Source of the DNA: Candidatus Omnitrophota bacterium
GTDB taxonomy: Bacteria > Omnitrophota > Gorgyraeia > Zapsychrales > JANLHA01
Assembly (NCBI GenBank): GCA_040753435.1
Contig: JBFMEN010000062.1
Coordinates: forward strand, 6,726 to 70,725
DNA: 64,000 nt
Direction of reading: 5' to 3'
Shown here: one piece after another, positions 6,143 to 29,849 of the stretch
Position numbering within the stretch: position 1 is the first letter of the stretch
Layout of the letters: each line of letters begins with the position of its first letter
The notes under the pieces: generated by a model
Database searches by the model: none
The model's input: the letters and a program-made list of their open reading frames with translations, nothing else
What the model was told of the DNA's origin: nothing
Translations under genes and position numbers: made by a program

Positions 6143-6227
6143 TTTTGCGTATGCTGTGGCGGATGTGTAGCGTATTGTTTATGGCGTATGGCAGTTATAA
6201 GCAATAAGCGATAAAGTGGAGGATATG

Positions 6228-9767: not shown

Positions 9768-10457
9768 ATGAAAGTCTGCCTCCGTTGCGAAGAGTTCTTT
9801 CAGGAAGGGACGATGGCTTGCAGCCGCTGCAACGGGCAGCTTGAAGAAATTTCGTTTGTCCAGGCGCTGCAGTTAACCCGTAAACGTTCCCTCGAGAAAC
9901 AAATCTCCAGCCAGGCGACAAGACCAGACGCTTATAAAGAATATTTGATCCGTCGTTATCTCGGCGATGATTCATTGTTTTTACTCTACGATATTGCCAG
10001 GAACCGCCTGAAACACGGCAGGGATCCAAAGCGTTTCTTTATTCAGCCGATCAACTTTACCGCCTTCTTTAACATCCCGTGGTTTCTTTTTAATGTTCTC
10101 AGCACCAATTCTTTTCATATGAGCCACACAGGTTTCTGCGAAAGATGCAGCTGTAAATTTATCCCCGGGCGCCATTCCCGGGAAGAATGCGACTACAATA
10201 CAGAGTATTTCAGCATTATTGACGATGTTATGACGGGAAACATTGTTAACACCCGTTTTATTTATAAACAATACGGGAGTGAAAATAAAAAGCAGGGTAA
10301 GCGCAGCGCCTATTATGACCTTTTTGAACGGAGGGTGAAGGTTGAAGCCTTTTTTGATTTGTTATCCATCGGGCTGTCATTAATGTTTTGGGTGTTCATC
10401 GTGATTTATATTACGTTTCCGTTCATTAAAGCGTTTTTTCAGGACATCTACGGTTAA
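9768..10457 (+). CDS. Hypothetical protein with N-terminal zinc-ribbon (CxxC..CxxC), second Cys cluster and C-terminal TM helix
   Basis: 229-aa ORF; MKVCLRCEEFF..CSRCNG and CERCSCKF...EECDY cysteine clusters; hydrophobic C-terminus; no recognised family. Confidence 0.5.
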   Translation: MKVCLRCEEFFQEGTMACSRCNGQLEEISFVQALQLTRKRSLEKQISSQATRPDAYKEYLIRRYLGDDSLFLLYDIARNRLKHGRDPKRFFIQPINFTAFFNIPWFLFNVLSTNSFHMSHTGFCERCSCKFIPGRHSREECDYNTEYFSIIDDVMTGNIVNTRFIYKQYGSENKKQGKRSAYYDLFERRVKVEAFFDLLSIGLSLMFWVFIVIYITFPFIKAFFQDIYG

Positions 10458-10729: not shown

Positions 10730-11653
10730 TTAATGATTGATTTTTTCTGAAATCCAGTAAAGCGGGCGCTGTTTGACTTCTTTAAAGACAGTCATCAGAT
10801 ATTCGCCGAGAACGCCGATGAAGATCAACTGAAGCCCGCCGATAAAAAAGACGCCGACCAGGATGGAAGGGATGCCGGCCGGGGCTCCGTGGGCCAATTT
10901 ATCATAAATGATATAGAGAGCATACAGGACGCTTAAGGCGGCAATGAAAAATCCGAACGTTGAGCATGCGCGCAGCGGAACACTCGAGAACGAAAGCGTT
11001 CCGGTGATCGCCAGCTTAATCATTTTAATGAGACTGTATTTGGAAATCCCATTCCGGCGGGGATTTTCGCGGTACAAGATCCTGGCTTGATTAAAGCCAA
11101 TGTCCGAGACCATCCCCCGCAAAAACCGGTCGCGTTCGCGGTACTGACGCAGGCACTCAACGACCTTGCGGCTCAGCAGCCTGAAATCCGCCGCGCTGTT
11201 TACGAGATCGAGATGCGAGACGGCTCGGAGAAAACGGTAAAATAACCGGGAGGTGAGGTTTTTAAACCAGGGCATGTCCTTTTGTCTGTCCCTGACCGCG
11301 AACACGATGTCCGCGCCTTTTTCCCACGCATCCAGCATCGCCGGGATACTTTCCGGAGGATGCTGAAGATCGCTGTCCATTGTAATCACGGCCCGGCCTT
11401 CGGCATGATCAAGGCCTGCGGTCAGCGCGATCTGGTGCCCGAAATTTTTTGGAAAAAAGATCGCCTTCGCGTTTGTATGATTTTGACAAATTTCACGTAT
11501 TTTTTCCCGCGAGGAATCCGTCGACCCGTCATCGATAAACCACATTTCCCAGGTATATTTCTCCGGTATGGCGCGCCGTACCGATTCGTACAAGTCGTGA
11601 AGGTTGCCTTCTTCATTATGAACGGGGGTGACGATGGACAGATCAATTGGCAT
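10730..11653 (-). CDS. Polyprenol-phosphate glycosyltransferase, GT2 family (ArnC/GtrB/DPM1-like) with two C-terminal TM helices
   Basis: From ATG at 11653 (AGGAGG RBS upstream on - strand): MPIDLSIVTPVHNEEGNL...WFIDDGSTDSS...ITMDSDLQHPP, the GT2 DxD/DXSxD architecture, plus C-terminal hydrophobic pair as in GtrB/ArnC; the longer annotated ORF to 11797 overlaps the upstream gene and is rejected. Confidence 0.8.
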   Translation of the reverse strand: MPIDLSIVTPVHNEEGNLHDLYESVRRAIPEKYTWEMWFIDDGSTDSSREKIREICQNHTNAKAIFFPKNFGHQIALTAGLDHAEGRAVITMDSDLQHPPESIPAMLDAWEKGADIVFAVRDRQKDMPWFKNLTSRLFYRFLRAVSHLDLVNSAADFRLLSRKVVECLRQYRERDRFLRGMVSDIGFNQARILYRENPRRNGISKYSLIKMIKLAITGTLSFSSVPLRACSTFGFFIAALSVLYALYIIYDKLAHGAPAGIPSILVGVFFIGGLQLIFIGVLGEYLMTVFKEVKQRPLYWISEKINH

Positions 11654-13142
11654 AACGGATCCTCCTGAACATGACCCAGTGGTTGCTGACAAACATCGGG
11701 GACCACATCCCGCCCAGTAGTTCAAGATTCTGGTCGCCGCTGTAAGGGTTGTAAAGATAATAAAGCGTTCCCGGATCGACGATAATCTCCCTGACATTTG
11801 AAGTAAAAATAAAGTCGGGAAAGGTCTTCCCGTAATTCATGTTCGTCAGGCGCGGAATCGCGTAGCCCGGCTCAAAGGCGTTCGTCCGCACGGTTGCGCC
11901 ATTATCAATGACTTCATGTTTAAATACCGCGTTTTTAGCCATCCAGCGCTGTAGATTCATTGTGTCGTACTGGTAAGTTTCATGGTAATTCACCGCGCTT
12001 CCGCCGATAACAGTATTCAGCAGAAGGCCGGTGATTGCAAGAATAATGAAAAGTGAAACAGGAATGGTTTTTAACCGCGGGGCAAGAATCAGCGTGATGA
12101 TCAACGCGAAGAAAAGCGCGAGCGGGGTCACGTAGTGCCCCCATGAATTCCACGGCAGGATAATTATCGCGTAACCGAAATACGCAAAAAACGCCAGGAG
12201 CCGGCCGAACAATAATCCCGGATGGGAGGGCTGCTTTGCCGAGAAAGGGAACGCGATCAGCGTCAGCGCAATCCAGGGAGAATGATTTACCAAAACTTTA
12301 TTCAGCCACACCCGGAGATTAAAATTGATCCTCGCGAAATCAGTCAGTCTGTAATCTCCCGAGTAGGTGAGATCTTTTGAGATGCCGAATTTCATAATAA
12401 GAGCGTAAACAAGCGAAAGCGCAAGGATCAAGGTTCCGAGCAGGAAGACGTTTTTAAACTTTTTGAAACCTGCCAGCGCGGCAAAAACGATCATACTGGC
12501 GCCCAGGGCGATTCCGGCGGCAACAAAGGTTTCTTTGGACAGGAACGAGAGCAGCAGGAAGGCGGACGCACAAATGATTGTCGATGTTTTCAGACCTGTG
12601 CGGGATGTCTCAAACACCGGCGCTAGTGATCGATAGAACAGCAGGAATGCCAGGCCCGAGAACAGTGAGCCAAGGATTTCTACTGTCGACAAGAAAAAAA
12701 ACGCGTCATAGAATTTATAAAAGGAAAGGGCAATCGCGATAAAAAAAGGAGCGGCATATTTTTGCCGTGAAATAACGGCCGCCAGACAGCCCCAGACGCC
12801 CAGTGTCAGTATGACTTCAAACCAGCGGAAAATCAGAAAGGCCTTGGGGCTGCTGTGAAATAACGTGTAGAAAACGGCTGCGTGCGCGTTGTAAACAGGG
12901 AAAAAACGTCCTGTCTTAAGCAGGCCCTGGATTCCGTTGACCATTTGCTGCCAGATGGTTTCGGTGGACATGATGAAGGCGTGGTCATCCATGAGTCCCC
13001 AGGCCCAAACCTTGCTGATTAATGAAGAAAGGACCAGGAACAAGGGGACGAGAGCGGGGAGCCACCAGATATTCGCGAGGGAAATATCAGGCTGTTCTTG
13101 ACGACTTTTGCCTGAGAACCAGTGTTTGATGATATTGCTCAT
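11643..13142 (-). CDS. Polytopic membrane protein, putative GT-C-fold glycosyltransferase (ArnT/PMT-like)
   Basis: 499 aa, >10 predicted TM helices, acidic motif (GLMDDHAF) in first loop as in GT-C enzymes; stop overlaps start of the GT2 gene by 11 nt (translational coupling), mirroring ArnT/ArnC or GtrC/GtrB pairing. Family assignment is by architecture only. Confidence 0.65.
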   Translation of the reverse strand: MSNIIKHWFSGKSRQEQPDISLANIWWLPALVPLFLVLSSLISKVWAWGLMDDHAFIMSTETIWQQMVNGIQGLLKTGRFFPVYNAHAAVFYTLFHSSPKAFLIFRWFEVILTLGVWGCLAAVISRQKYAAPFFIAIALSFYKFYDAFFFLSTVEILGSLFSGLAFLLFYRSLAPVFETSRTGLKTSTIICASAFLLLSFLSKETFVAAGIALGASMIVFAALAGFKKFKNVFLLGTLILALSLVYALIMKFGISKDLTYSGDYRLTDFARINFNLRVWLNKVLVNHSPWIALTLIAFPFSAKQPSHPGLLFGRLLAFFAYFGYAIIILPWNSWGHYVTPLALFFALIITLILAPRLKTIPVSLFIILAITGLLLNTVIGGSAVNYHETYQYDTMNLQRWMAKNAVFKHEVIDNGATVRTNAFEPGYAIPRLTNMNYGKTFPDFIFTSNVREIIVDPGTLYYLYNPYSGDQNLELLGGMWSPMFVSNHWVMFRRIRYAN

Positions 13143-16122: not shown

Positions 16123-18276
16123 TTAACCCTGCGGTTCCGGCAGTCCGCCCGGCTGGTTAAATAACATAAGATGCACTGCGTAGTTCATGGCCCCGTCTTG
16201 ATGCACGTTCTGATTTATAGAGACCAAATCTTTGATTGAAAAAAATCCGTGCGTGCGGTTAAGGGTGATGAGAGGCGTTCCTTTTCCGGAAATGATGACG
16301 CGGTTTCCTTTCAGCGCGATTTCGGGCTTTTCATTATAAAGAAGAACCGGACACAGGTCTTCGACAGCGGGAAGCCAGGTTTTCCCGTCGGAATAGTCCA
16401 CTGGAACAACGTGGCGCAGGCGCGGGTTTAAGGGGTTCAGAATCATCTTGAGCCCGGGGCTGATGATGATTTCATTATCCTTTCCGTTGTCGAAAAAACT
16501 TTCCGCGTGGAGGATCAGAAAGTAATTAAACGCCGGCATGGCCATGGGCAGAATAAATCCTGAAGCGATCGAAACCGCCGAGCCGATTATGAGCAGCATG
16601 GCCATCAGCATTTCGATGTTCAGGGTTGCAATCCCGAAGCCAAGCAGGAAACCTGCGGTACTAACGACAAAGGTGAAAAAATCACTGACCCCTTCCACAA
16701 GGTTGCTGTACCGCGAAAGACCGGTTTTGACAGCCTGTTCGCCGGTGATGACCTCGGCCGTCGCCAGTTCCTTCCAGTAAAGTTCCCCGTAAATGGAAAC
16801 CGCGTTGTCCATGAGCCACCATAACAGGAAGAAAATAAGGTACTGCATCGGCGTCAAACGGGGAAAAAATCTCAGCAGGGGAAGATGAAGAAACGTTTTT
16901 TCCGGGATCAGCAGGACAAAAAGAAAAACCATGATAATGTTGAGGACCGCGAAGTACCGGAAAAACCGGATGAGATTATTGTTGGCATCGTAATTCTGGA
17001 GGCGTTTTTGCCACAGGCTTCCGGAATCCTTTTGGCTGATCCGGGTATCCGCCCGCCGGTAAAAAACGACATCACGGTTCACTTCTTCCGCGATCTTCAG
17101 CCGGATGAGAGGAAGGACGTAGCGCTCCAGGACATAGGTGATGAAATAAAAAATACTGATGACAACGAAACCGGCGATCGTGATCTGCCCGGCGTAGGCG
17201 ACGATCGCGACAAAGAACACGCCCAGCAGCATCTGGCTGAAATAGGCGTAGAATAGCCAGAAACCTTCGCCGGTGCGGTAGAGAGGGCTGAAGTTAAGCG
17301 CGCGGAACCAGTACTTCACCCCGGAAGTGATGCTCAGGCGTTCCGTGACATACAAGGCGTAATAAGGCCCCTGGAAGGACAGCCCGGAATCGCCAAGCGT
17401 GCGGATCTTTCTCCAGACCCCGGCTTTTTTCAAGTCTGATTTAAATTGTGAACGCTCTTCCGAGGTTATGTGTTCCTGATTAAAGCTCGGAAGGGAAAGG
17501 CCGGTTTTGTAGGAAAGGGTCGTGTGGAACTGGTCCTGATAATGTTTGCCGGAAGAGTCCTTGGTGAAGATAAAAACAATCCTTTCCACCTCCAGGCCGA
17601 ATTCTTTGAAGACTTTGTAATAAATGAAACGCTCCGGCAGCCGCAGGGAAGGGCTCGTGGGATGTTTGATAAGGATCACGTATAATGTGTCACCCAATTT
17701 CAGCAGTTCCGCCATGGCATCGGCCTTGGGCCGTCCGTTTTTTAAACTGAATGAATGGAACAGGTAGAGAGGGGAAGAGTACTCCCCCTTGTCGTGTTCG
17801 GAAATATAGGCCTGCAAGACAGGGTTGATATCGATGATTTTTGAAATATCTTCGTGCTGGGAATCTGCCGGCCGGACGCGGGTAAAATGGCTGTATTCGC
17901 GTTGAAGTTTCTTGGAAAAATCAGGTATGGCCAGGTTTTTAAAGCCGTCGGTTTTGCGGCTTTGGCGCCATTTCAGAATAACGGCGAGAATGACCGCCGT
18001 GAGAGCCAGACCGGCGATGATGGAGGCAATCCCGCCGAGTTTGAGGAAATCCTGGCTGTTTTCAGAGGAAATAATGTTAAGAAGGCTTGAATTGCCGGAA
18101 AAAAAGGAAAAGAAATTTTCGATGATATTGTCGAACATAAATGTTTTCTTGCCCGCTAAAAAGTGTTTTCCGCTTTCGGGGAGGCCTATTATAACAGAAA
18201 AACCGGCCGGGGGAAACAAAGCCAGGCGAAAGCGCCGCGTGTTTTTGTCCGGAAAAATGCGGATCAGACCTGACAT
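16123..18276 (-). CDS. Large polytopic membrane protein, function unknown
   Basis: 717-aa ORF (alternative start ATG 18138 gives 671 aa); one N-terminal TM, ~230-aa loop, ~8 TM helices, ~110-aa C-terminal soluble domain; no family recognised. Confidence 0.6.
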   Translation of the reverse strand: MSGLIRIFPDKNTRRFRLALFPPAGFSVIIGLPESGKHFLAGKKTFMFDNIIENFFSFFSGNSSLLNIISSENSQDFLKLGGIASIIAGLALTAVILAVILKWRQSRKTDGFKNLAIPDFSKKLQREYSHFTRVRPADSQHEDISKIIDINPVLQAYISEHDKGEYSSPLYLFHSFSLKNGRPKADAMAELLKLGDTLYVILIKHPTSPSLRLPERFIYYKVFKEFGLEVERIVFIFTKDSSGKHYQDQFHTTLSYKTGLSLPSFNQEHITSEERSQFKSDLKKAGVWRKIRTLGDSGLSFQGPYYALYVTERLSITSGVKYWFRALNFSPLYRTGEGFWLFYAYFSQMLLGVFFVAIVAYAGQITIAGFVVISIFYFITYVLERYVLPLIRLKIAEEVNRDVVFYRRADTRISQKDSGSLWQKRLQNYDANNNLIRFFRYFAVLNIIMVFLFVLLIPEKTFLHLPLLRFFPRLTPMQYLIFFLLWWLMDNAVSIYGELYWKELATAEVITGEQAVKTGLSRYSNLVEGVSDFFTFVVSTAGFLLGFGIATLNIEMLMAMLLIIGSAVSIASGFILPMAMPAFNYFLILHAESFFDNGKDNEIIISPGLKMILNPLNPRLRHVVPVDYSDGKTWLPAVEDLCPVLLYNEKPEIALKGNRVIISGKGTPLITLNRTHGFFSIKDLVSINQNVHQDGAMNYAVHLMLFNQPGGLPEPQG

Positions 18277-18433
18277 GGACAGGTCTGATTCCTTTTTTTC
18301 CTGTTTTCATTTTCGTTTTTCGCTGGTATTGTAATGTTAATCATTTTAAAAGACACGCTGTCCGCGGGTGATGGCAGGTACGCTGGAGACGAATCGCCTC
18401 GATCCCGCGCAAATCTAAAAGGAGGGGATTATT

Positions 18434-18991
18434 ATGTGGATTGTCCTTGGTATCGCCGCAATTATTTTTATTTCCGCAGTCTCGATGTACAACTCGCTCA
18501 TCGGTAAGCGCAATCAGGTGCAGAATATTTTCGCCGGTATCGATGCTGTTCTCAAAAAACGTTACGACCTTGTGCCCAACCTTGTGGCCGCCGTCAAGAA
18601 TTACATGCAGCATGAGGCCGGAGTTCTGACCGGGATCACCGGGCTCCGTGCCAAAGCGGTTTCCGGCGGACTTTCCGACAATGAAAAGGTCGAGCTGGAC
18701 AATAAACTGACCAAAGCCATCGGCGGCATTATGGTTGCGGTCGAAAATTATCCGGACCTTAAGGCCAGCGAAAATTTTCTTCAGCTTCAGCGCTCGCTGA
18801 ACGAGATCGAGGAACAGCTTTCTGCCGCCCGCCGCGCCTACAACGCCGCGGTCACTGATTACAATAACGCCGTCGAAATGTTTCCCACCAATATTTTTGC
18901 CTCCGGGATGAACTTCAAACTCAAGCAGGTGTTTGAGATCGCCGAACAGGAGCGCCAGAATGTGGATGTGGCCGGGCTTTTTAAATCGTAG
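18434..18991 (+). CDS. lemA: LemA family protein
   Basis: 185 aa; N-terminal TM then ..YNSLIGKRNQVQNIFAGIDAVLKKRYDLVPNLV.. and ..YNNAVEMFPTNIFASGMNFK.. are LemA family blocks. Confidence 0.85.
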   Translation: MWIVLGIAAIIFISAVSMYNSLIGKRNQVQNIFAGIDAVLKKRYDLVPNLVAAVKNYMQHEAGVLTGITGLRAKAVSGGLSDNEKVELDNKLTKAIGGIMVAVENYPDLKASENFLQLQRSLNEIEEQLSAARRAYNAAVTDYNNAVEMFPTNIFASGMNFKLKQVFEIAEQERQNVDVAGLFKS

Positions 18992-19004
18992 CAGGGGATG
19001 ATCA

Positions 19005-19973
19005 ATGAAAACCCGCGAAGATTTGAAAAGTTTTTTTGATGTTGTCCTGTCGCCAGGCCTCAAGGAACTGGAAAAGAAACGCTTAAAAGTTTTGAACTCG
19101 GTTATTCTGGTTGAGGCGGGGGTATTGGCCGTCACGTTGCTTGTCGCCGGGCTTGTTTACAATTCCGGCGGAGGCGAGCCGCTGCTCTCTGTTCTCTTCA
19201 TCGGGGTACTAGTCATGGCCGGTTTGTTCGCTGTGCTCACGCACAGTTTTCGTTCTCCGTTTAAAGAAACTGTGATCAGGCCTCTGGTCCGTTTTTTCGA
19301 TGAAAGCCTGAGTTATACCCCGGATGGTTGTATTTCCTGTGACCTTTACACCTGTTCGAAATTGTTCCTGCATCATGTCGATGAATACCGCGGCGACGAC
19401 CTGGTCGAGGGTATGATCGGAAAGACCCGGGTCAAGTTCTCTGAACTTCATACGCAGTACAAGGTCGAGACGAGGGATAGTAAAGGCCGCAGACAGACCC
19501 AATGGCATACGATCTTTAAAGGGCTTTTTTTCATTGCCGACTTTAACAAGAATTTCAGCGGCCGGACCGTGGTCCTTCCGGATCAGGCCGAAAGGTGTCT
19601 CGGCGGGTTCGGAAAATTCCTGCAGTCAAAAAATGTGTCGCGGGATCCTTTGGTCAGTATGGACGACCCCGGGTTTGAAAAGGAATTTGTCGTTTACGGA
19701 ACCGATCAGATAGAGGCGCGGTACATTTTGACATCGAGTCTGATGAGCCGCGTTATGAATTTCCGGCGCAAAACCGGAAGGAATCTGTACCTGTCGTTTA
19801 TCGATTCGGCGATTTTTATCGCGATCCCGTACGCGAAAAATTTGTTTGAACCCAATATCTTCCGGACCCTGCTGGACTTTAAACCGGTCGAAGAATATTT
19901 TAATGATTTGAATACGGCATTGAGCATCGTCGAGGAACTGAACCTGAATACGCGGATCTGGAGCAAAGTATAA
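19005..19973 (+). CDS. LemA-associated membrane protein (DUF3137-like), hypothetical
   Basis: 322 aa, two N-terminal TM helices followed by soluble domain; immediately downstream of lemA; family call is from memory of LemA neighbourhoods, not verified. Confidence 0.55.
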   Translation: MKTREDLKSFFDVVLSPGLKELEKKRLKVLNSVILVEAGVLAVTLLVAGLVYNSGGGEPLLSVLFIGVLVMAGLFAVLTHSFRSPFKETVIRPLVRFFDESLSYTPDGCISCDLYTCSKLFLHHVDEYRGDDLVEGMIGKTRVKFSELHTQYKVETRDSKGRRQTQWHTIFKGLFFIADFNKNFSGRTVVLPDQAERCLGGFGKFLQSKNVSRDPLVSMDDPGFEKEFVVYGTDQIEARYILTSSLMSRVMNFRRKTGRNLYLSFIDSAIFIAIPYAKNLFEPNIFRTLLDFKPVEEYFNDLNTALSIVEELNLNTRIWSKV

Positions 19974-20060: not shown

Positions 20061-23000
20061 TTACTGATTTAATAAAACCGGCAGGTCGTAAACAGGCTGG
20101 ATTTGAATGATGACCGGGGTCAGCCCCTGGATGGGCAATTCGGGATTAACGCGAAGTTCATCCGGAATGTTTAACCGGATGCCTTGCCCCCGGCGACCGA
20201 GTTTGAGCCGGGAGGGATTAAGATCAATACCGCCCGGCGGTTGATCTGCTCCTGTCCTGGCGGAATCAACGGATTGTTTGATCTGCTTGATTTTTTTTGT
20301 CAGTAATTCATCATGTCCTCCGAACATCGCATATTGCAAAGCGCGCAGCAAGTAGTGCGGATGATAAGCATCTTTTCCTCCGGAAAATGTTTTTCCTTTT
20401 AATGCGATGGATCTCGCCTTTCCCTGCAAATGCAGCCGCGCCGTCTTTCCGTCAGCCGTTATGACAAGCCATTCTCCGTCGAACGACAATTTCAGAATCT
20501 CGCCCTGGACATAGTATTCGCCCAGCTCATGAAATATGGAAATGCTGTTATCGGATAAATCCCGGGCCAGAGCGATCAGCTTTTTTTCAAAAGAAGCGAT
20601 GCCGAGGAAATCCGCAACCGGATCGGTAAACAGCCTGAGCTCCGGCGGTGAATTTTCCAGTAATCGCAGGAATGCGTCGATGATCTGCTGATTATGCGGG
20701 TTGACACTCTCATTTTTTAATCCGGTTAAAGCAGTCTCAAGATGCCCGCGGCCGTTCTCGACCGTTATCAGATCCCGCACGCCGAGCAAATGGTTTTCCC
20801 TGTCGTAAAGATGGAGTTCATCTTCCCCGCCATCATCATTGCTGACAATTTCTCCGTGAGCGTTTTTGCCGATCAAACCGGCGAGGACGGGAATCGTTTC
20901 ATTAAGAAAAGGTTCTGTGACCCGATCCTCCTTCTGCCCAAATGAGAAATACCGGACGCTTCCGTCACCGTTATGGTTAACACCCAAAAGCGCCCGTAAT
21001 TGCCGCTGTTGTTCGGGCGTTAACGTTATAAAGATCGTAAGGTCTTCCCTGAAGGCGATCTTTTCAATTGTTTCCGCCCGGACGATGTGTTTGCCTTTGA
21101 GCTCGCTGTCTTCTCCGGTCGCTTCCTTAATCCCTTTCAGCATTGTCGATCTGGGATCTTCTTCGGATTCGGAAAAACCCGTGGCTTGCGTTCCGCGATT
21201 TGCTGCGGTCACGATGCTGAAGGAATCTGTGATCGTTATTGACGCCTTTTGAAGGAGGTTCAGGACCCGGGTAGCATAATCCCCGCAGTAGCAGGAGTCG
21301 ATCATAATAACGAGGTCCGAAAGAACGCCTCCGGAACCAGAGGCCCGTTCGATGAGATCATCTGCGAGTTCCTTGTAGCTGATTCCGTCGGGATGCGAGA
21401 GGTTCTCTGATTTTTCTTTGCCTTCCTGCCCGCCGCGCAGCCAGAAATGATTTGGACCGCCGTGGCCGTTAAGGTAAATAAAGGTCTTTCCTGGAGAAGT
21501 CCGGATCTCTTTTCTCAGCGCGTCCTTTCCGTAATAAGCCAAACCGTCGTAGGCCTTGACGCGCTTATCGAAAGAGTCTTCGCCGGGTCTGGCGCCGATG
21601 AACTGGCTGATGAAATTTTTAATATATTCTGTTGAAAAGATAAGGCTGTCGTCATTGGTGCCGATAATAACGGAGTAGCCCCGATCAAGAAGTGTTTTTT
21701 CAAGAAAGTCTTCGCGGATTTTGAGGATGAACGGGATGAGCGCGGAGATCTTTTCATCATCCAGGCCCAGGCCGTGTGTTTTTAAAACAGTGTCAACCGC
21801 GCGCGCGACGGAGAATTGGTTCACGGAATGAAGGTCTTTTGTCATTTTACTGAATTCTTTATTTGAGTAGATCAGCAGATAATCTTGCAGCGAAATGACC
21901 CCCTTGCCCAGTTCAGCCCAGCGATAGGAGAGATTAAGAAAAAGCCTTTTTTGCGGATGTTCATTCGATAAATTGAACCCGACGGCCCATATCGCCCATG
22001 TTGCGATGCCCTTGTCCTCCTCATAAAGTTTGAGGATCGCAGGAAGGAGGTGATTTTTTAAGATACCTTCCGGATCTGCCCCGATGCTTTGACTGACTGT
22101 TCCGATCGCGTCCACTGCCTGGTTGAAGACTTCGTCATTCTCATCTTTTAATCCGTAATTGAAGATGACAGGAATAATTTCATTTTTAAGGAGCGGGAGG
22201 TCGGTCAATCCCATCTTGGCCAGCGAAGAGATGGCCCAGTCGGCGGATATGCCGTCTTTGTTCCTGATTCCGTTCAGAATTGAGTTGATGATCGCAAGTC
22301 TTGCCGGAGATTCTTCAGGAACTTCTTCCCGGATGTTTTCCAGAACCATGGCGGCATGAAGCCGGAACCATTCGGAAAAGAAAAGGGAGTGGACCAGGGT
22401 GGGAATAATCTTTTCTTCAAGAACCGGATCATCTTTCAGCTGCAGGGCAGCATTTTTCAGCAGGGCAAATGACCTGATTCCAAGGTTCTCATCCAGCAGA
22501 AAAGGCAGGAGATGTTTTTTGGTGAATTCTGGTTCCTGAAGATCAATGATGGCCTGGCCGGCGCCCTTAATAATGATACCGGCGGAGATTTCTCTCCTTG
22601 CGATCAAATCCAGTACCGGTTGAATGACGCGGGTTTTGACGAAATGTTTCTTGCCGGCGGTATCCGCGTCTCCGTCCATTTTTGCGATGATGGTGAAGAT
22701 AGTGTTTTCTATTGCCTGGTCCGGATTCCTGTCCTTCAGCCTGGAGATCAGGAAATCAACTGCTTCCGGTCCCATCGCCGTCAGTTCCTTCCACTGCCGG
22801 CCGGCATAATAAAAAATTTTCTTGTCTTCCGGCAGTAGAGGCTCCCAGCCGATTTTTTTCAACACATCAGCGCCGTGCAGGCGGACCGACGGTTCGGGAT
22901 TGGTCAGATTGCCCCGGAATTTATTAATAATCATATCTTTGACGGGATTCGGCTGTGAAAATGATCGCGCAACCAGGATCAGTTCCCCGGACACGTCGCC

Positions 23001-25124
23001 AGGCGCGGCCAGCAGCAGGCCGGTGATTTGTTTTTTCAAAGGATTTGAATCCGGCACTGATGCGGCGATTCTGGCGAGCGCCCGGAATGGAGAATTTTCA
23101 CCGGTCATTGTTGATTCGGCCGCTTCGTCAATCAGGAAAAGACTGATTTTTTGAATAGCCTTTTTATCACAATGGGGGGAAGATGCGATCATTCCCAGGA
23201 CAGTGTAAGGGGAAGTGTCTTCAATATATTTTTCAGATGACGCTTTTTCTATCATTAACGGGATGACTCGTTGAGTGACGTAGTCCTGATCCGGGAGCGA
23301 GGCCGAGATGACGCCGATCGTCCAGAAGAGATCCTGTTTGAACGGGAGCCCGTTGTCATTGACGGCTTTAAGCAGAAGATCCAGGGCCGCGGCTCCCGCT
23401 TCGGCCAGGGCATCCCATTTTTCATGCGCGAGCAGGTATCCGATGTAGGCCTGGCCATCGCCGGGTCTTTTCGGTTGCGCGTTGCTTTGTTCAAGGATTC
23501 CGGCGGCGATTTTGCGGATATCGTTGTTATTGACGTTTTCAAGAATTTTTAAAGCGGCCGGGATGACCATCGTCCGGATCCGCGGATCTGGTTTATCTTT
23601 TTCCGCGGTTTCCCCAACAGATACAAGATCGGGGCGGTTTTCCGCAAGCGCGATCCGGTACAGTAACTTCGCGGCCTCTTCACGGACTCTCCAGGGTTCT
23701 TTTTCATCAAGAATGGCGTCGATGAGTAAGGGAGCCGCGGCCAGCCCGGTTACGATGACTGGTTCAGCAAACGAAAGGATGTTCTGCCGGTAAAGATCGA
23801 GATGGCTTTTGACCCTTTCCCGTGCAGTAGCATTGATATTCTTTTTTTCCTCATCGGTTAACGGAGCGGCGCGCACCAGGGACTCTTCTGCCGGGAAAAA
23901 TGCCTTTTTGTCGATCTGCTCATTTGAAAGATAATCAGGATTGATCCTGACGATTAGATTCTGATCAGCGCCGGCATCAATCAATCCGGAACCGCTGTTT
24001 AACAGGAGCGCGGAGGCTAAAACGACAAGACCCCGGATCCCTTTTTTAACAATTCCGGCTGATTGTTTGTTCAAAGGTTTTCTAATGATTTTTTTGCTGA
24101 TGTCTTTCCCGAAATCCGCTCCGCCGGAAAAATATCTTTTTGGGGTTGATGTTCTGGTCGCGGGATCGTATTCCTCGCGGATGTAGTCATAAACGCCTTT
24201 TTGGAAGGCTTCGAGATAACGCCGGTAAATTTTCGACGTTGCATCCGTGTCCTCAATATTGATCCCGTTCACCAGGTTCCGGTCTGCGTAAACTTTGTTC
24301 AGGATCGCTTCCTTGAGGTTTTCCTTGAACCAGGCGGCCAGGATCAGCGCGTGATAAATCTGTCTGAGCTGGGCGAAATGAGCGCCCTGATTGACCTCGC
24401 GTTCGATCTCGGGGATAATGATTTCTTTTAACACTTCCCGGCGGAATTCCGTTTCTTCAGGATTATCATGGGTTTCATTGGCGGAACCTTGGTAGTCGCT
24501 TTCCAGCATGACTTTGAGCCGGCTTTCCTGGATGCAGGCGATGTCCTGGTCTTCATAAATAACTGCGGATTCTGGAACGATCCAGACTTTGTTAAAGGCG
24601 TCTACAGGGATATCTGTTGTCCCGTAACGGGCCAGCGCTTTTTCCCGGACGGTTTTCCAGAATTTTTTTCCGGGCGTTTCTTCCGGATACATAAGTGAGG
24701 CGGTCAGTTGTTTTAAAATATAATCCTGTGCAAGAAGGTCGCGGCCCATTTCGGTTTGGCCGAATTTATCAGGGATAATGCGATCCTTTTCCATGGGGGA
24801 GAGGTTGACCCAGAGGTCTTCTTCCGGCACGGTTAAAGACGCCATAAAATACTGGATGATTTTTTTTGATTCCGCTTCCAGCGCGATTGCATCAGGTGCC
24901 TGGTCACCGGTATCGATGATAAAGTCAAAATGGAACGGGTTTTCCGGATCGATGATAACGCCCTTTAAAAGTGGCGGGGTAAAAATTTTGCTTGGGGCGA
25001 CCATGGCGCCGGGTACAGGAAGGTTGAGCAGTTCCTGGGTATAGGCGGGAGTAAGCGCCGAATTCACAGAAAAAGACGCCAGAATCAGGCAGAGAACACT
25101 GTTTTTGATGAACTTGTTTATCAT
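20061..25124 (-). CDS. Giant secreted multidomain protein: signal peptide + novel N-terminal domain (shared with 27324..29849) + HEAT/ARM-like repeats + clan-CD (caspase/clostripain-like) cysteine peptidase domain + shared C-terminal ~60-aa motif
   Basis: Start ATG 25124 chosen (AGAAGAGA RBS, good signal peptide MINKFIKNSVLCLILASFSVNSA); alternative ATG 25172. Peptidase signature FIYLNGHGGPNHF ... ~50 aa ... LVIMIDSCYCGDY (hydrophobic strand-His-Gly and hydrophobic strand-Asp-x-Cys) around 21280-21470. Confidence 0.8.
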   Translation of the reverse strand: MINKFIKNSVLCLILASFSVNSALTPAYTQELLNLPVPGAMVAPSKIFTPPLLKGVIIDPENPFHFDFIIDTGDQAPDAIALEAESKKIIQYFMASLTVPEEDLWVNLSPMEKDRIIPDKFGQTEMGRDLLAQDYILKQLTASLMYPEETPGKKFWKTVREKALARYGTTDIPVDAFNKVWIVPESAVIYEDQDIACIQESRLKVMLESDYQGSANETHDNPEETEFRREVLKEIIIPEIEREVNQGAHFAQLRQIYHALILAAWFKENLKEAILNKVYADRNLVNGINIEDTDATSKIYRRYLEAFQKGVYDYIREEYDPATRTSTPKRYFSGGADFGKDISKKIIRKPLNKQSAGIVKKGIRGLVVLASALLLNSGSGLIDAGADQNLIVRINPDYLSNEQIDKKAFFPAEESLVRAAPLTDEEKKNINATARERVKSHLDLYRQNILSFAEPVIVTGLAAAPLLIDAILDEKEPWRVREEAAKLLYRIALAENRPDLVSVGETAEKDKPDPRIRTMVIPAALKILENVNNNDIRKIAAGILEQSNAQPKRPGDGQAYIGYLLAHEKWDALAEAGAAALDLLLKAVNDNGLPFKQDLFWTIGVISASLPDQDYVTQRVIPLMIEKASSEKYIEDTSPYTVLGMIASSPHCDKKAIQKISLFLIDEAAESTMTGENSPFRALARIAASVPDSNPLKKQITGLLLAAPGDVSGELILVARSFSQPNPVKDMIINKFRGNLTNPEPSVRLHGADVLKKIGWEPLLPEDKKIFYYAGRQWKELTAMGPEAVDFLISRLKDRNPDQAIENTIFTIIAKMDGDADTAGKKHFVKTRVIQPVLDLIARREISAGIIIKGAGQAIIDLQEPEFTKKHLLPFLLDENLGIRSFALLKNAALQLKDDPVLEEKIIPTLVHSLFFSEWFRLHAAMVLENIREEVPEESPARLAIINSILNGIRNKDGISADWAISSLAKMGLTDLPLLKNEIIPVIFNYGLKDENDEVFNQAVDAIGTVSQSIGADPEGILKNHLLPAILKLYEEDKGIATWAIWAVGFNLSNEHPQKRLFLNLSYRWAELGKGVISLQDYLLIYSNKEFSKMTKDLHSVNQFSVARAVDTVLKTHGLGLDDEKISALIPFILKIREDFLEKTLLDRGYSVIIGTNDDSLIFSTEYIKNFISQFIGARPGEDSFDKRVKAYDGLAYYGKDALRKEIRTSPGKTFIYLNGHGGPNHFWLRGGQEGKEKSENLSHPDGISYKELADDLIERASGSGGVLSDLVIMIDSCYCGDYATRVLNLLQKASITITDSFSIVTAANRGTQATGFSESEEDPRSTMLKGIKEATGEDSELKGKHIVRAETIEKIAFREDLTIFITLTPEQQRQLRALLGVNHNGDGSVRYFSFGQKEDRVTEPFLNETIPVLAGLIGKNAHGEIVSNDDGGEDELHLYDRENHLLGVRDLITVENGRGHLETALTGLKNESVNPHNQQIIDAFLRLLENSPPELRLFTDPVADFLGIASFEKKLIALARDLSDNSISIFHELGEYYVQGEILKLSFDGEWLVITADGKTARLHLQGKARSIALKGKTFSGGKDAYHPHYLLRALQYAMFGGHDELLTKKIKQIKQSVDSARTGADQPPGGIDLNPSRLKLGRRGQGIRLNIPDELRVNPELPIQGLTPVIIQIQPVYDLPVLLNQ

Positions 25125-25389
25125 TCTCTTCTCAGGTAAAAAAGGTAATATAAGGAATTTAAAGCTAAGCATAGAACATTTTTGAGCAAAAAACCAGTGC
25201 TTCCCCGGGTTATTTTATTCAAAAGTGGACACTTTTTGACGAATTCCGGCCGGATATTCTTCCGATATTTCAGGACCTGCCGTGCTTGCAGATTAACTTG
25301 TCCCTGTTCGTTGACATCCCGGTCTGATCGGCTATAATTTCATGGGATGAGACAAACGATGGATTGATTCATAACGATGGAGGTGTGTG

Positions 25390-25848
25390 ATGAGAAAAGG
25401 TTTATTAAGTGCAGTGATGGTTTTGGCCCTGATGGTTTCTCCGGTTTTTGCGCAAGAGCCGGCAGCGCCGCAGGAAGGCACAGTTCAGCCGGGGGCCGGT
25501 TACGGCTATGGCATGAAAAATCGTGAAATGATGGGGCGCGGCAAGTTCCTGGAGAAGAAGATGATGATGGGAAAGATGTGTGCCGCGGGCGACATCATGA
25601 AAATCATGATGAAGACGACCGTGACTGTCACGCCCGATGGCGGCGTTATTGTCTTGCGGGGAAACAGTCTGGCGAAGTATGACAAAAATCTGAATCTCGT
25701 CAAAGAGGTTCAATTGAAAGACATGACCGAAGAGATTCAGCAGAAGATGCAAAAGATGATGAAGGAATGCCCGGTGATGCAGCAGAGAATGGGTGATGAT
25801 GATATGATGATGGAACCCGAAGAGATGGAGCCTGAGCCGGCGGAATAA
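25390..25848 (+). CDS. Methionine-rich secreted protein (signal peptide; ~28 Met in 152 aa)
   Basis: GGAGGTG RBS then ATG 25390; N-terminal signal peptide LLSAVMVLALMVSPVFAQEP; Met-rich blocks KKMMMGKM, MKIMMK, MQKMMKECPVMQQRMGDDDMMMEPEEME. Confidence 0.7.
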   Translation: MRKGLLSAVMVLALMVSPVFAQEPAAPQEGTVQPGAGYGYGMKNREMMGRGKFLEKKMMMGKMCAAGDIMKIMMKTTVTVTPDGGVIVLRGNSLAKYDKNLNLVKEVQLKDMTEEIQQKMQKMMKECPVMQQRMGDDDMMMEPEEMEPEPAE

Positions 25849-26135: not shown

Positions 26136-27278
26136 ATGAGCACGAAACCGGCGAAAATGAAAGACCGTAAATTATTGGCCGGTCATCCGCCGGCACAAAC
26201 CCTTCTTGCTTCCCCGTTAGACAGTTCTTACTCACGATTATTAACTGATATCACCACTGCCTTTCGTACCGGACTTCTTCAGGCGCAGCAACTGCTCGAA
26301 TACGCGCGGCTTGAGACCCACTGGCTGGTCGGGCGGCACATCGTTGTTTACGCCGCGTTTCCGCACAGCGCTTACCCGCTCACTACAGAATTTTACATTA
26401 AACTGAGCAATGATCTGCGTGAGCAGGAAGGGATCGAGATGAGCAAGGACATGCTTCAGCGTTCGGCACAGTTTTTCCGCAATTATGAAATCTTCCCTGA
26501 CCGAACACCGCTGACATGGACGCATTATCTCATCCTGATGCGGGTGACCGATGAAAAAATACGTCTTCAACTGGAGCGCAAGGCGATCAAACAAGGATTT
26601 ACCGTCAAGGAATTAATGGCTGAGTTGGACCGGTTAAAACTGGAGAGCTCTGTCATTCAGATCAACTCCGCCGGCAAACTGGTCTTTGAGCGCGGCAAAC
26701 CTTACACGTACCGGATTTGCGAGAACGAGGATGTGGAAGGGAAAAAGATCCTGGCCATCGATTGCGGTTTCGGCATGTGCCGGGATATCCCGAAGGGAAC
26801 CAGGCAACAGTTAAGTTCCGGGCAGATAGTCTGCACGCAAAAGAGGGCGGACGGCGAATACAGTCTGACCGCGAATAACAAGCGCCGCGGACAGAATTAC
26901 ACCTATCCTGCCAGAGTCCTTAAAATCATCGACGGCGACACGCTTGATCTTCGGATCGACCTTGGATTTTATTTGCGGCTGATCTGTGAGCGCGTCCGCC
27001 TGCGCGGGATCGACGCGCCGGAAATGACCGGGAAGGGCGGGCCCGGAGCCAAAGATTTTCTTGTCAAAACTCTTTCGAAATGTCCCGTTATTGTGGTCCG
27101 CACCACCAAAGCATCCGGGCAGGAGGCTCCCGACGCCAAAGAAAAATTCGGCCGCTGGCTGGTTGATGTGTTTTTTCTGCCGGAGAATGATGATGCGACG
27201 GAGATTGCGGAAAAAGGGATGTATCTGAATCAGTTGATGCTGGATGAAGGCCATGCGGAGATTTACAGGATCAAGTAG
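26136..27278 (+). CDS. Fusion protein: DUF1016(YhcG)-N-terminal-like domain + C-terminal staphylococcal-nuclease (SNase/thermonuclease)-like domain
   Basis: C-terminal ..ARVLKIIDGDTLDLRIDLGF...ERVRLRGIDAPEM.. is the SNase GDT / RLxGIDAPE signature; N-terminal region (..LLEYARLETHWLVGRHIV..) resembles YhcG-type N-domain; no signal peptide. Confidence 0.7.
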   Translation: MSTKPAKMKDRKLLAGHPPAQTLLASPLDSSYSRLLTDITTAFRTGLLQAQQLLEYARLETHWLVGRHIVVYAAFPHSAYPLTTEFYIKLSNDLREQEGIEMSKDMLQRSAQFFRNYEIFPDRTPLTWTHYLILMRVTDEKIRLQLERKAIKQGFTVKELMAELDRLKLESSVIQINSAGKLVFERGKPYTYRICENEDVEGKKILAIDCGFGMCRDIPKGTRQQLSSGQIVCTQKRADGEYSLTANNKRRGQNYTYPARVLKIIDGDTLDLRIDLGFYLRLICERVRLRGIDAPEMTGKGGPGAKDFLVKTLSKCPVIVVRTTKASGQEAPDAKEKFGRWLVDVFFLPENDDATEIAEKGMYLNQLMLDEGHAEIYRIK

Positions 27279-27323: not shown

Positions 27324-29849
27324 TCAATCCAACCGCGCCGCCAGATCCTGTTCCTTTGTTTCAATCGCCTTTTGATCAAATCCTAAAAGGGGAAGGATAT
27401 TCTGGACAGGAGTTACATTGATGATAACCGGCGCCAAACCGTCGATATCCATGTCCGCCAGACCGTCCATCGCCCGGGGATTGAACCGGATACCGGTCTT
27501 TTCGCCATGCATGGTGAAATTGATTTCATTCATATCGATACCGCCGTTGATTTTAGTATCTTCATTTTTGACTAACATGGCTGAATCAATCCCCGCTTTT
27601 TCAGCCAGGGCTAGCATAGTGTTTCTGAGCACTTCGCGCGATTGCGCTTCATCATCGCTCACTCCCCTGACAGGATAGACATTCCCTGCGGTATCGTAGA
27701 GGGTCATTCCAAGGTCCCGGTAAACTTTTGCGGTTGCTTCTCCCCAGTTCTTTTTAAATAATTGCTCTATTCTGTTAATAGCAGCGTGAACTAAAATGAG
27801 ATTTTTTTTGCCAAAATCAGGATTAGGAGAACCGGCCCGGAAATTTTCAGTTAGAATTTTTAATTCATGCATCGCGTCCGCAACCTCTTTAAAAGGAGGA
27901 AAGAAGGAAGGGTTCATGGTATTGGGGTCGATTCGGACCATAAAATCGCCGTAATCTTTAATTAAATTTTCCATTATCCGTTTATGCCGGGGAGTATTGA
28001 CTATTTTTCTCAGAAGTGCTTCAGGATGATCGAAAACTTTTTTTGCGATTTCTTCCCTGACCCTGCGGACTGGTAAATTTTCACGGATGTTGATGGTGTT
28101 GCCGGCGACATCAATTTTTGATATGGACAATACGTTTTTGTCGAGAACGATTTTCTTAATCTTGTCCATAAATTTTTGCATTTTTTCATTATCTTTCCAG
28201 GCTTCTTCAAACTCATATCCGTAAACTTCTCCGATTACGGCGTCATTCAGTTTAATGAATATGGGCCTGCGGGCTTGGTATAAGTGTCTTGCTTTGATTT
28301 GATCAAGAGCCAATCGTAATATTCTTGGGAAATACAGACCTTCGACAAGATAGTCCAGCGTCAGCATTGCCTCGTCGGTTGCAGCCGGCATTCTTCGGGA
28401 AGCCGACACCTTGATACGGTTTTCGGCAACTGTAAAGTTATTGATGCTGTCGACATCAGCGAGAGCGCCTGTTACCGATTCCTTGAGCTTTTTCATATCG
28501 GATTCGAAGTATAACGCGGCATGGTAATTCCAGGGACGTATTGCCATGATTGGTAAACCATTGAGATTCAGGATAACATTCTGGTATTTTGCCAAAGACA
28601 CCTGCGTAAGGAGTACAGGAAGTTTTTCTTGGATAAATTTGCTTAATGTCAGCATCTCTTCGCCGATAGGCGCAACCGGAATTCCGTTTTTTTCAGGAAC
28701 GGTGCGCATTTCGACCTCGAAGGCTGAGCCCTGAATCAATCCCAGGCTGCCGGGATTGCTGACATTCCTGGTGATCATGGCTTCATCCCTGAACCCGCCG
28801 GAAAAATATTGTTTTGGGATGACGGCTTGGGAAAGCGCATCGTAGTCTTCTTTAATGAAATTGAAAACTCCTTTTTCATAGGCCTTTATGTATTGATCGT
28901 AAATTTCATTAATAACATTCACCGGCCGGTCATTCGCCAGTTCAATGCCGCCTGTCTTTTTTTGATCCACATAAATTTTTGAAAGCACGGAATCTTTCAC
29001 GGCTTGCTTGTACCATTTGGCCAGGATCAGGGAATAGTAGATCTGGCGCAGGGGCGCGAAGGTTTCACCGTTATTGATTTCTTTTTCGATCTCGGGCAGG
29101 ATGAGTTCTTTGATGACGTCCTGGGCAAGGTCTTCAACGCTTTCGGGATTATTCAGTGGAGAATCCCGGCCGCCTTGTGTCTTTTGATAGTCCCTGTCCG
29201 TCATGACTTTAAGATGCGCGTCCACAATGAAGACCGTTTGATCATGCTCGTAGAGGGTGGCGCTTTCCGGCAAAATCCATACCTTGTTGAATAAATCGGT
29301 CCTGACATCTGTCGTTCCAAACTTTTCGTACGCCTGTTGATGAATGCGGTTCCAGAATTTCGCCCCCAGTTCACTGTCGGGATTGGTCAGCGTGGCTGAT
29401 AATTGTTTCAGAATATAGTCCTGGGCAAGCAAGTCCCGTCCGAGTTCAGTTCTGCCAAGTTCCTCAGGAATAATACGGTCGGCTTCATAAGGAGAAAGGT
29501 TGACCCAAAGGTCATTCTGGGGGATCGTCATTGAAGCCAGAAAGTATCTGACCAGCCGCTCACTTTCCTGTCTAACTTCGTCGGCGTTAAACCCGCTGTT
29601 ACCGCTGTCGACGATGAAATTAAAATCCAGGAGATCTTCGGAATTGACGGTTAGACCTTTAAGCAAAACCGGAATAAATGCAGGGCTGACATTTACCATG
29701 GTCCCTGGAACAGGCAGGTTGAGCGCTCCAACCGATTGGGCCAGCGCCAGTGAAGGGTTAAGAGCGGTCCAGAAAAACAGGACGTTCATGATTAAAGACA
29801 ATGATTTGCAAAACGAACGCTTGTGTTGCTTTCGAAATGGCCGGAACAT
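27324..29849 (-). CDS. Secreted paralogue of the giant protein: signal peptide + shared N-terminal domain + divergent central region + shared C-terminal motif
   Basis: Start ATG 29849 (AGGAGA RBS; MFRPFRKQHKRSFCKSLSLIMNVLFFWTALNPSLALA signal peptide). Residues ~45-400 align block-by-block with the giant protein (LNLPVPG, DLWVNLSP, GRDLLAQDYILKQL, FNKVWI.PESA, LRQIY, YFSGG). Confidence 0.8.
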   Translation of the reverse strand: MFRPFRKQHKRSFCKSLSLIMNVLFFWTALNPSLALAQSVGALNLPVPGTMVNVSPAFIPVLLKGLTVNSEDLLDFNFIVDSGNSGFNADEVRQESERLVRYFLASMTIPQNDLWVNLSPYEADRIIPEELGRTELGRDLLAQDYILKQLSATLTNPDSELGAKFWNRIHQQAYEKFGTTDVRTDLFNKVWILPESATLYEHDQTVFIVDAHLKVMTDRDYQKTQGGRDSPLNNPESVEDLAQDVIKELILPEIEKEINNGETFAPLRQIYYSLILAKWYKQAVKDSVLSKIYVDQKKTGGIELANDRPVNVINEIYDQYIKAYEKGVFNFIKEDYDALSQAVIPKQYFSGGFRDEAMITRNVSNPGSLGLIQGSAFEVEMRTVPEKNGIPVAPIGEEMLTLSKFIQEKLPVLLTQVSLAKYQNVILNLNGLPIMAIRPWNYHAALYFESDMKKLKESVTGALADVDSINNFTVAENRIKVSASRRMPAATDEAMLTLDYLVEGLYFPRILRLALDQIKARHLYQARRPIFIKLNDAVIGEVYGYEFEEAWKDNEKMQKFMDKIKKIVLDKNVLSISKIDVAGNTINIRENLPVRRVREEIAKKVFDHPEALLRKIVNTPRHKRIMENLIKDYGDFMVRIDPNTMNPSFFPPFKEVADAMHELKILTENFRAGSPNPDFGKKNLILVHAAINRIEQLFKKNWGEATAKVYRDLGMTLYDTAGNVYPVRGVSDDEAQSREVLRNTMLALAEKAGIDSAMLVKNEDTKINGGIDMNEINFTMHGEKTGIRFNPRAMDGLADMDIDGLAPVIINVTPVQNILPLLGFDQKAIETKEQDLAARLD

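Follow-up and report, generated by a model that had tools for sequence, protein, structure and literature searches.

A conserved C-terminal tag paired with a constant N-terminal domain in a large family of predicted exported Omnitrophota proteins

Introduction

The Omnitrophota are widespread, uncultured, ultra-small bacteria that are thought to live as parasites or predators, and an oddity of the phylum is its exported proteins, some of them giant, which are full of normally intracellular enzymes. According to a preprint (bioRxiv 10.1101/2023.11.21.568195) and related work, the giant proteins ("archaeovorins") are predicted to be exported or membrane-bound, and the preprint proposes that C39 and S8 peptidase domains within them cut them up. 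Here, we describe a C-terminal tag that ends two proteins, encoded by genes that we call A and B, in a 64,000-nucleotide stretch of a Candidatus Omnitrophota genome (assembly GCA_040753435.1, contig JBFMEN010000062.1, positions 6,726 to 70,725; the whole stretch is referred to below as the window).

Among the closest described systems, the C-terminal domain (CTD) of type IX secretion system (T9SS) substrates in Bacteroidota (Por_Secre_tail) is a module of ~60-100 residues at the extreme C-terminus of very many unrelated Sec-signal proteins of one phylum-level lineage. TpsA proteins of two-partner secretion combine a signal peptide, a constant N-terminal domain of ~300 aa and a long variable passenger. 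In the LapA/MpIBP-type adhesins of the type I secretion system (T1SS), constant ends that serve localisation flank a long variable middle. The family described below shares features with each of these, around a tag of new sequence.

Results

Two window genes share both of their ends

A sequence-only reading of this DNA had pointed to a motif of about 60 residues common to the C-termini of two otherwise different secreted proteins. The shared tail is real and far beyond chance. By pairwise BLASTP, the tails of genes A and B share 36% identity in a 73-residue alignment (E 1e-5), and a hidden Markov model (HMM) trained on 72 tails from other genomes, with both window proteins excluded, matched gene B (E 1.7e-25) and gene A (E 3.6e-12) and no third open reading frame (ORF) at E<=10 among all six-frame ORFs of the window. 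The reverse-complement translation of 20061-20252 reads GADQPPGGIDLNPSRLKLGRRGQGIRLNIPDELRVNPELPIQGLTPVIIQIQPVYDLPVLLNQ and then stop (the 3' end of gene A), and that of 27324-27557 reads TKINGGIDMNEINFTMHGEKTGIRFNPRAMDGLADMDIDGLAPVIINVTPVQNILPLLGFDQKAIETKEQDLAARLD and then stop (the 3' end of gene B). Both genes lie on the minus strand; read on the plus strand, the coordinates given in the sequence-only reading translate into nothing meaningful. Gene A ends straight after LPVLLNQ, without an acidic tail, and the tag of gene B carries 19 more residues. In a regular-expression scan of the six-frame translation, no ORF but these two combined the two halves of the motif; the one other GG[IVL]D match, at 26672, was discarded because its translation runs into stop codons.

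The description "otherwise different" holds for the middles of the two proteins but not for their N-termini, since the first ~350 aa are also common to both (45% identity, E 3e-98). With both ends aligned by BLASTP, genes A and B are paralogues with common ends and different middles. Gene B has no Pfam or NCBIfam match.

The tag ends thousands of Omnitrophota proteins

The motif is not private to the two paralogues. A tag profile of 74 sequences, run in an exhaustive HMMER search of 1.84 billion representatives, matched 5,504 clusters (50% identity) at E<=1e-3, of which 1,620 also passed E<=1e-10. The tag stood at the extreme end of the protein in every one of the 150 best of the 5,504 matching clusters, over protein lengths of 67 to 6,249 aa. 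The 217 local HMM matches ended 0-41 aa from the C-terminus, mostly 0-2 aa, and a second or internal full copy was never found among them, even in proteins of 3,000-6,000 aa. IMG/VR viral contigs gave no tag match.

A search with the full gene B protein returned more than 3,625 homologues, nearly all labelled Omnitrophota or Omnitrophica, which align through the N-terminal ~40% only and whose middles vary widely in Pfam content. About 95 of the 120 homologues listed finish with the tag motif, and most of the remainder break off abruptly, as if at contig ends (two, P0042 and P0075, were inspected). A scan of one genome per GTDB species yielded 43 loci with family members, labelled Omnitrophota or "uncultured Planctomycetales" metagenome-assembled genomes except for one "uncultured bacterium", one "bacterium" and one Desulfuromonadaceae bin. 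The tag is the constant C-terminal element of a very large, undescribed and Omnitrophota-restricted protein family.

Signal peptide, N-domain, cargo and tag

Family members usually consist, in this order, of a Sec-type signal peptide, a constant N-domain of ~350-390 aa that ends in YFSGG, a cargo region and the tag. Complete members start with a basic n-region, a hydrophobic core and a cleavage-like site, ..PPGYAQS; by a simple hydrophobicity test, signal-peptide-like N-termini were present in 104 of 124 complete N-domain members, both window proteins included. The N-domain has ~60 invariant columns and a signature that begins directly after the signal peptide (LNLPxPGxMV ... DLWVNLSPYExDRIIP ... 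LAQDYILKQL ... FNKVWIxPE ... NFAxLRQIY ... YFSGG), and genes A and B both carry the signal peptide and the N-domain. A strong transmembrane (TM) segment lies just behind the N-domain in ~15 of 107 members; most, including both window proteins, have none.

The conserved part of the tag spans ~65 aa, with the consensus xVGGIDMNxIxxxRxGxGxxIxFDP(10)IxGFxPVIINxTPxxSxLPLLGL. Three positions (G7, G8 and P46) never vary, and conservation reaches >=90% at eleven more, among them I9, D10, N12, G22, G43, I48, I49, P53, L61 and G62. The tag is followed by a tail with a median of 16 residues and a net charge of -1.9, often ending ..E[VL]SxLN. Pfam (E<=0.1) and NCBIfam recognise neither the N-domain nor the tag, and sequence-profile searches of PDB with each gave no match, so that known wall- or membrane-binding or sorting domains in these three databases are not recognised in the tag. 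On this count, as on that of its spread beyond the two paralogues, the motif withstands the objections that the sequence-only reading had set out.

The cargo between YFSGG and GGID measures 160-2,928 aa, with a median of 714 (n=119). Its Pfam families among gene B homologues include HEAT, ankyrin, aldose epimerase, REC, methyltransferases, NUDIX, NDK, radical SAM, UDPGP, adenylate kinase and glutamate dehydrogenase. Since the cargo is wholly unrelated across members, the ends have been kept through repeated cargo exchange. The cargo is overwhelmingly of cytoplasm type (radical SAM with a B12-binding domain, GGDEF, HATPase, guanylate kinase and PRTase also occur), and how such domains would fold and function outside the cytoplasm, behind Sec-type signal peptides, is a puzzle. 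The cargo of gene A contains two segments with a His-Gly/Cys pattern (Table 1) and a sub-threshold match to Peptidase_C13 of the legumain/caspase clan (E 0.068, below the Pfam cut-off); it may be a clan-CD protease module.

Two short motifs are enriched family-wide: D-x-A-M-[LIMF], with 242 occurrences vs 48 in shuffles (5-fold), and SSSP/SSP[VIL], with 149 vs 14 (11-fold). Both cluster 0-50 aa after YFSGG and 7-20 aa before GGID, and they may serve as linker or processing sites; gene B has a copy of the first at each boundary. A longer unit, S.VG..[FY].L.M.I.PQ....D.AML, is found in the interior of long proteins as well (P0202, P0231). The idea that the post-YFSGG segment is a duplicated first half of the tag, with the cargo inserted into an ancestral contiguous domain, was dropped at an hhalign probability of 1.2%. 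So was that of a post-N-domain strand travelling with the tag, which was seen in only 4-5 of 116 N-domain-less proteins and whose unit also lies inside long proteins.

The tag and the N-domain together and apart

The majority of complete proteins, 107 in the collected set, carry both N-domain and tag. A fully conserved tag without an N-domain is found in P0213, behind a lipoprotein-type signal, and in P0190, behind a plain signal peptide. Locus L015 has a free-standing 112-aa tag gene (5893-6231) with neither signal peptide nor N-domain, which sits between yidC-parA-parB and the gene of a 1044-aa beta-helix/FlgD-Ig protein. Conversely, P0075 is a complete protein of N-domain and NUDIX that has no tag. 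Three other apparent tag-only proteins were rejected: the cargo ORF ahead of P0128 (L046/L047) is frameshifted, P0259 overlaps a 3,304-aa gene at that gene's end, and P0127 lies at a contig end. Most representatives lacking both signal and N-domain were discounted, given the fragments and frameshift products among those checked.

On contig JBBRHV010000048.1 (L044 5001-8531, the same as L027 2689-6264), a family gene has undergone a clean fission. The first half is an N-domain-only gene of 514 aa (P0042) that ends ..HSF-TGA-CTG-TAA; the ATG of the second half, a 659-aa HEAT and tag gene without a signal peptide, follows immediately after the TAA. A T2SS-E/PilB-type ATPase gene lies three genes upstream of the pair.

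Pairwise distances in the N-domain go together with those in the tag, at a Mantel r of 0.65 (n=125) against at most 0.18 in any of 999 permutations. By mutual information with average product correction (MI-APC), the inter-module pairs N299-C14, N304-C18 and N303-C14 rank 3rd, 7th and 20th of 42,520, and they tie one N-domain helix (299-304, ..AKWYKET..) to tag positions 14 and 18. This signal is essentially a two-state split between subfamilies and not independent covariation.

Predicted structure

AlphaFold2 was run on full-length gene B (841 aa, alignment of 36 family members) and on the isolated tag of the other paralogue, gene A (74-sequence alignment). Both runs were judged from the predicted local distance difference test (pLDDT), the predicted template modelling score (pTM) and secondary structure, not from contacts. 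In the gene B model, the N-domain (residues 45-330, pLDDT ~90) is predicted to consist of helices and two long hairpins (62-81 and 190-217), the latter with strands of 13 residues each (190-202 and 205-217), and behind YFSGG comes a strand of 12 residues (376-387); helices of low confidence make up the cargo. The tag in this model has strands at 770-772, 778-782 and 804-815 (the last of 12 residues, GLAPVIINVTPV) and a helix at 791-798, with block-mean pLDDT of 77-92 over residues 771-820.

The gene A tag modelled alone gave a pTM of 0.20 and zero strands. With strands in the full-length model only, the tag looks like a docking strand and not a self-folding domain, that is, an element without an autonomous predicted fold that is ordered only against a partner. 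Foldseek returned no credible fold relative for the gene B model from either PDB or BFVD.

Genomic setting

The window is ordinary chromosome, with pyrH, frr, ptsI, metK, ahcY, uppS, ilvC, leuA, aroE, aroK, dprA, topA, xerC and genes for a prepilin peptidase and for waaA, lpxK and lpxL-like functions. From the last three, a lipopolysaccharide (LPS)-bearing diderm with an outer membrane is expected. The LPS core/lipid A block encodes a Kdo transferase, LpxK and a fusion of a lipid A acyltransferase with an ELM1-like domain, and together with the A24 peptidase gene it points to an outer membrane with LPS and to type IV pilin-like substrates.

Same-strand tandem arrays of family genes are common elsewhere (L005, L008, L011, L027, L038, L039, L021). 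Two neighbouring copies in L027 have N-domains that look nearly identical along the aligned N-terminal part, a hint of recent duplication or gene conversion. The window copies differ from such arrays, as unrelated genes lie between A and B and the N-domains are only 45% identical. A nuclease-like gene and a 153-aa ORF occupy the segment between them, which may represent a small insertion of mobile or defence type. Four ORFs near gene A have no Pfam match; one of them, of 264 aa, overlaps a well-supported DUF3137 gene and may not be real (Table 1).

Table 1. Positions in the window of genes A and B, their parts and nearby features
Feature	Position	Strand	Description	Basis
Gene A	20061..25124	-	1687 aa; NCBI MEW5895687.1, AB1650_08050, "hypothetical protein"; signal peptide, N-domain, ~1290-aa cargo (weak HEAT repeats, Pfam below cut-off), C-tag	ORF list, exact-sequence look-up
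Gene A N-terminus and N-domain up to YFSGG	24120..25124	-	MINKFIKNSVLCLILASFSVNSALTPAYTQ (signal-peptide-like)	translation, local N-domain HMM match
Gene A cargo, candidate protease segments	~21230-21480	-	aa ~1230-1315; YLNGHGGPNHF and IMIDSCYCGDYA	
Gene A C-terminal tag	20064..20252	-	ORF aa 1641-1703; GGIDLN...GLTPVIIQIQPV..LPVLLNQ	leave-out HMM, BLASTP
Gene A stop codon	20061-20063	-		
Gene B	27324..29849	-	841 aa; NCBI MEW5895690.1, AB1650_08065, "hypothetical protein"; identical to P0002 (100% identity); signal peptide, N-domain, ~370-aa helical cargo without family match, C-tag	
Gene B N-terminus and N-domain up to YFSGG	28794..29849	-	MFRPFRKQHKRSFCKSLSLIMNVLFFWTALNPSLALA, then QS (signal-peptide-like)	translation, AlphaFold2, homologues
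Gene B motif DEAMI	~28773-28787	-	aa ~394-398, just past YFSGG	
Gene B motif DSAML	~27573-27587	-	aa 794-798, ~10 aa ahead of GGID	
Gene B C-terminal tag	27327..27557	-	GGIDMN...GLAPVIINVTPV..LPLLGF, then 19-aa tail DQKAIETKEQDLAARLD	leave-out HMM, AlphaFold2 strands
Gene B stop codon	27324-27326	-		
ORF between A and B	25387-25848	+	153 aa, without family match	
Gene between A and B	26136-27278	+	DUF1016_N and weak SNase-like nuclease	
ORF near gene A	9768-10457	+	229 aa, without Pfam match	
ORF near gene A	11643-13142	-	499 aa, without Pfam match	
ORF near gene A	16123-18276	-	717 aa, without Pfam match	
ORF near gene A	18341-19135	-	264 aa, without Pfam match	
DUF3137 gene	19005-19973	+	overlapped by the 264-aa ORF	
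Prepilin peptidase gene	36984-37991	+	A24	
LPS core/lipid A block	42958-47427	+		

Discussion

Possible roles of the tag

The sequence-only reading had proposed the motif as a candidate novel sorting or anchoring domain, a proposal that is borne out in part. In favour of this stands a portable, conserved module at the extreme C-terminus, borne by unrelated middles and found behind other N-termini (P0213 and P0190); against it stand the lack of a predicted fold in isolation, the lack of a TM helix with a basic cluster, and an N-domain that is nearly always present. We tentatively favour, at a little short of even confidence, a post-export localisation or attachment tag that acts by strand addition to an envelope partner. 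The protein would be exported through Sec, and the conserved tag segments (GGIDxN, a short strand, a short helix, GFxPVIINxTP and LPLLGL) would add beta strands to a partner, either a putative receptor in the envelope or an N-domain, be it the protein's own or that of a second family member. The tag would fix the final place of the protein in the LPS-bearing diderm envelope regardless of cargo, whether by retaining it, by attaching it to the cell surface or by passing it on to a step at the outer membrane. The strictly terminal, single-copy placement of the tag, its independence of cargo, its strong conservation, its strands in the full-length model only and the predicted exported setting speak for this.

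Several observations weigh against this localisation role. Export is predicted from the N-terminus only, and the cargo domains are of cytoplasmic type. The 112-aa L015 protein and the second half of the L044 pair have no signal peptide, which is awkward for a purely post-Sec signal, and the complete N-domain protein P0075 does without the tag. The context-dependent strands in the AlphaFold2 models would be explained equally well or better by docking onto the protein's own N-domain. A dedicated sortase/exosortase-like or secretion gene, for which the sequence-only reading had suggested looking, did not turn up: genes A and B have no secretion, sortase or peptidase gene beside them, the window encodes no sortase-, exosortase- or translocon-like gene, and no gene family recurs beside family members in the 43 other loci, where neighbour clustering returned only antisense shadow ORFs and generic REC domains.

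Because the tag is nearly always accompanied by the N-domain, an intramolecular clasp is a serious alternative and the main rival, although on balance a doubtful one. The tag would be the C-terminal piece of a split scaffold whose long strand pairs with the sheet of its own N-domain or with the post-YFSGG strand; the chain ends would be tied, the cargo displayed as a giant inserted loop, and the terminal position would follow from insertion topology and not from sorting. The model of gene B, in which the tag gains strands and the N-domain and post-YFSGG region offer predicted strands of matching length (190-202, 205-217 and 376-387), is consistent with this, as are the frequent co-occurrence of the two modules, their co-varying distances, the high MI-APC ranks and the fission pair that leaves N-domain-only and cargo-plus-tag genes side by side. 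However, any two parts of a single gene should diverge in step, the MI-APC signal reflects the subfamily split, the tag is conserved without a cis N-domain in P0213, P0190 and the L015 mini-gene, and P0075 has a complete N-domain and no tag. The localisation and clasp readings merge if N-domains themselves are the receptor in trans. It is unlikely, though worth stating, that N-domain and tag are the signature of a new phylum-wide export or display route that would carry hundreds to thousands of distinct cytoplasmic-type enzymes and HEAT/ankyrin scaffolds over the inner membrane, to be fixed on the cell surface or delivered to prey. In a variant of such a route, the tag would dock in trans into N-domains, and the proteins would join head-to-tail into a multi-enzyme coat of the kind that other Omnitrophota encode as single giant polypeptides.

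The remaining explanations are less credible. The tag could belong to a processing element or pro-region, with cleavage at the GG of YFSGG and of xVGGID and at the DxAML/SSSPV linkers freeing the cargo after export, for example by C39-type double-glycine peptidases like those in giant Omnitrophota proteins. The GG is invariant at both module boundaries, the two linker motifs are enriched near both, and peptidase cutting has been proposed for the giant proteins, as noted above. We nevertheless consider it improbable. Double-glycine leaders of the class II bacteriocin type have hydrophobic residues at -4, -7 and -12, and the residues before either GG do not fit this pattern (-4 before GGID is usually Asp or Glu), so that C39 cleavage at these boundaries was rejected; no peptidase gene is linked to the family in the window or the 43 loci, and sixty conserved residues far exceed what a cleavage site needs. 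Still more improbable is a tail without any special role, no more than the conserved terminus of a set of paralogues, for example a small capping or oligomerisation element passed on by duplication. The window genes are indeed paralogues that share the N-domain as well, tandem arrays are frequent and the termini co-diverge, but the cargo is wholly unrelated across members, the tag also occurs on non-family N-termini, and invariant residues across 5,504 clusters argue for a specific constraint. Least credible of all is a type I-like one-step signal, with the C-terminal ~60 residues read by an ATP-binding cassette (ABC) transporter/TolC-type system and the N-domain acting as a LapA-like retention plug. 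The layout of constant N-module, long variable middle and uncleaved extreme C-terminal signal would be analogous, a few tag proteins have no signal peptide, and the tail is acidic. Substrates of the T1SS, however, have no Sec signal peptide, which most complete members possess; RTX repeats and nearby ABC and membrane fusion protein (MFP) genes are absent, and the tag is far more conserved than known T1SS signals.

Whatever the role, the two constant ends give a handle, by simple profiles, on thousands of Omnitrophota proteins that are predicted to be exported. The N-domain and the tag merit Pfam and NCBIfam models of their own, as members are now called "hypothetical" or named after their cargo. 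If the tag is a localisation signal, it would define the cargo list of a new envelope pathway in a phylum of the Planctomycetes-Verrucomicrobia-Chlamydiae (PVC) group; if it is a clasp, the family would provide a natural scaffold on which any domain could be displayed. Under both readings, the family bears on how the exported and giant multi-enzyme proteins of the phylum function.

Comparison with known systems

Like the T9SS CTD, the tag stands at the extreme C-terminus of proteins with a predicted N-terminal Sec signal, and it does so on very many unrelated proteins of one phylum-level lineage. It matches no T9SS CTD profile (Por_Secre_tail, type B CTD), weak HEAT being the only match at E<=0.1, and no T9SS machinery (PorK/L/M/N, SprA, PorU/V) is encoded within the window. 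The CTD is an autonomous beta-sandwich of about 70-100 residues, whereas the tag alone, for the one paralogue modelled, is not predicted to be so. The tag is further set apart by the acidic tail that follows it, by its PVC-group phylum and by the constant N-domain usually paired with it, since T9SS cargo has no such domain.

TpsA offers a parallel for the front of the protein, in that the constant N-terminal part could likewise be the element read by an outer-membrane partner. Unlike TpsA, the N-domain has no PF05860 match, is predicted to be mixed alpha/beta (helices and hairpins) and not a beta-helix, and is accompanied by a conserved C-terminal tag; no TpsB/Omp85 gene adjoins genes A and B. 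The LapA/MpIBP-type adhesins share the plan of constant ends, but most family members have Sec-like signals, and neither a HemolysinCabind match (RTX nonapeptides, GGxGxDxUx) nor an adjoining ABC/MFP pair was found.

PEP-CTERM, LPXTG and GlyGly-CTERM signals are similarly C-terminal, present on many exported proteins and expanded in particular lineages. The tag does not share their tripartite design of motif, TM helix and basic cluster: it has no TM helix (the Kyte-Doolittle 19-residue maximum is ~1.1 vs a threshold of 1.6, with three prolines in the stretch), no basic cluster and an acidic tail, and exosortase and sortase profiles (PF07589, PF00746, NCBIfam CTERM models) gave no match. The sequence-only reading was thus right to set the motif apart from T9SS CTD, PEP-CTERM and LPXTG signals. 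Autotransporters (type Va) end in a barrel of 250-300 aa (PF03797), against a tag of ~65 aa without a Pfam match. The donor strand of chaperone-usher pili offers a purely mechanistic analogy, in which a short terminal hydrophobic segment has no structure by itself and takes strand form on insertion into the sheet of a partner. The pilin strand, however, is N-terminal and of about 10-15 residues, and there is neither homology nor a chaperone or usher gene.

The archaeovorins resemble the family in phylum and cargo repertoire (HEAT, radical SAM, NUDIX, REC and sugar/nucleotide enzymes), a resemblance only, and the tag likewise ends long proteins, of 3,000-6,249 aa. They are encoded by ORFs of >20 kb with many TM helices, whereas genes A and B encode 1,687 and 841 aa without an internal TM segment. 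Keyword searches of a few Omnitrophota papers on giant proteins and genomes yielded no constant N-domain or C-terminal tag, and broader literature searches found no description of either module. Sorting tags at the C-terminus are as such a familiar kind of element. Judged by its sequence, this tag is new: it is without homology to known C-terminal signals, and its pairing with an N-domain around cytoplasm-type cargo has no direct counterpart.

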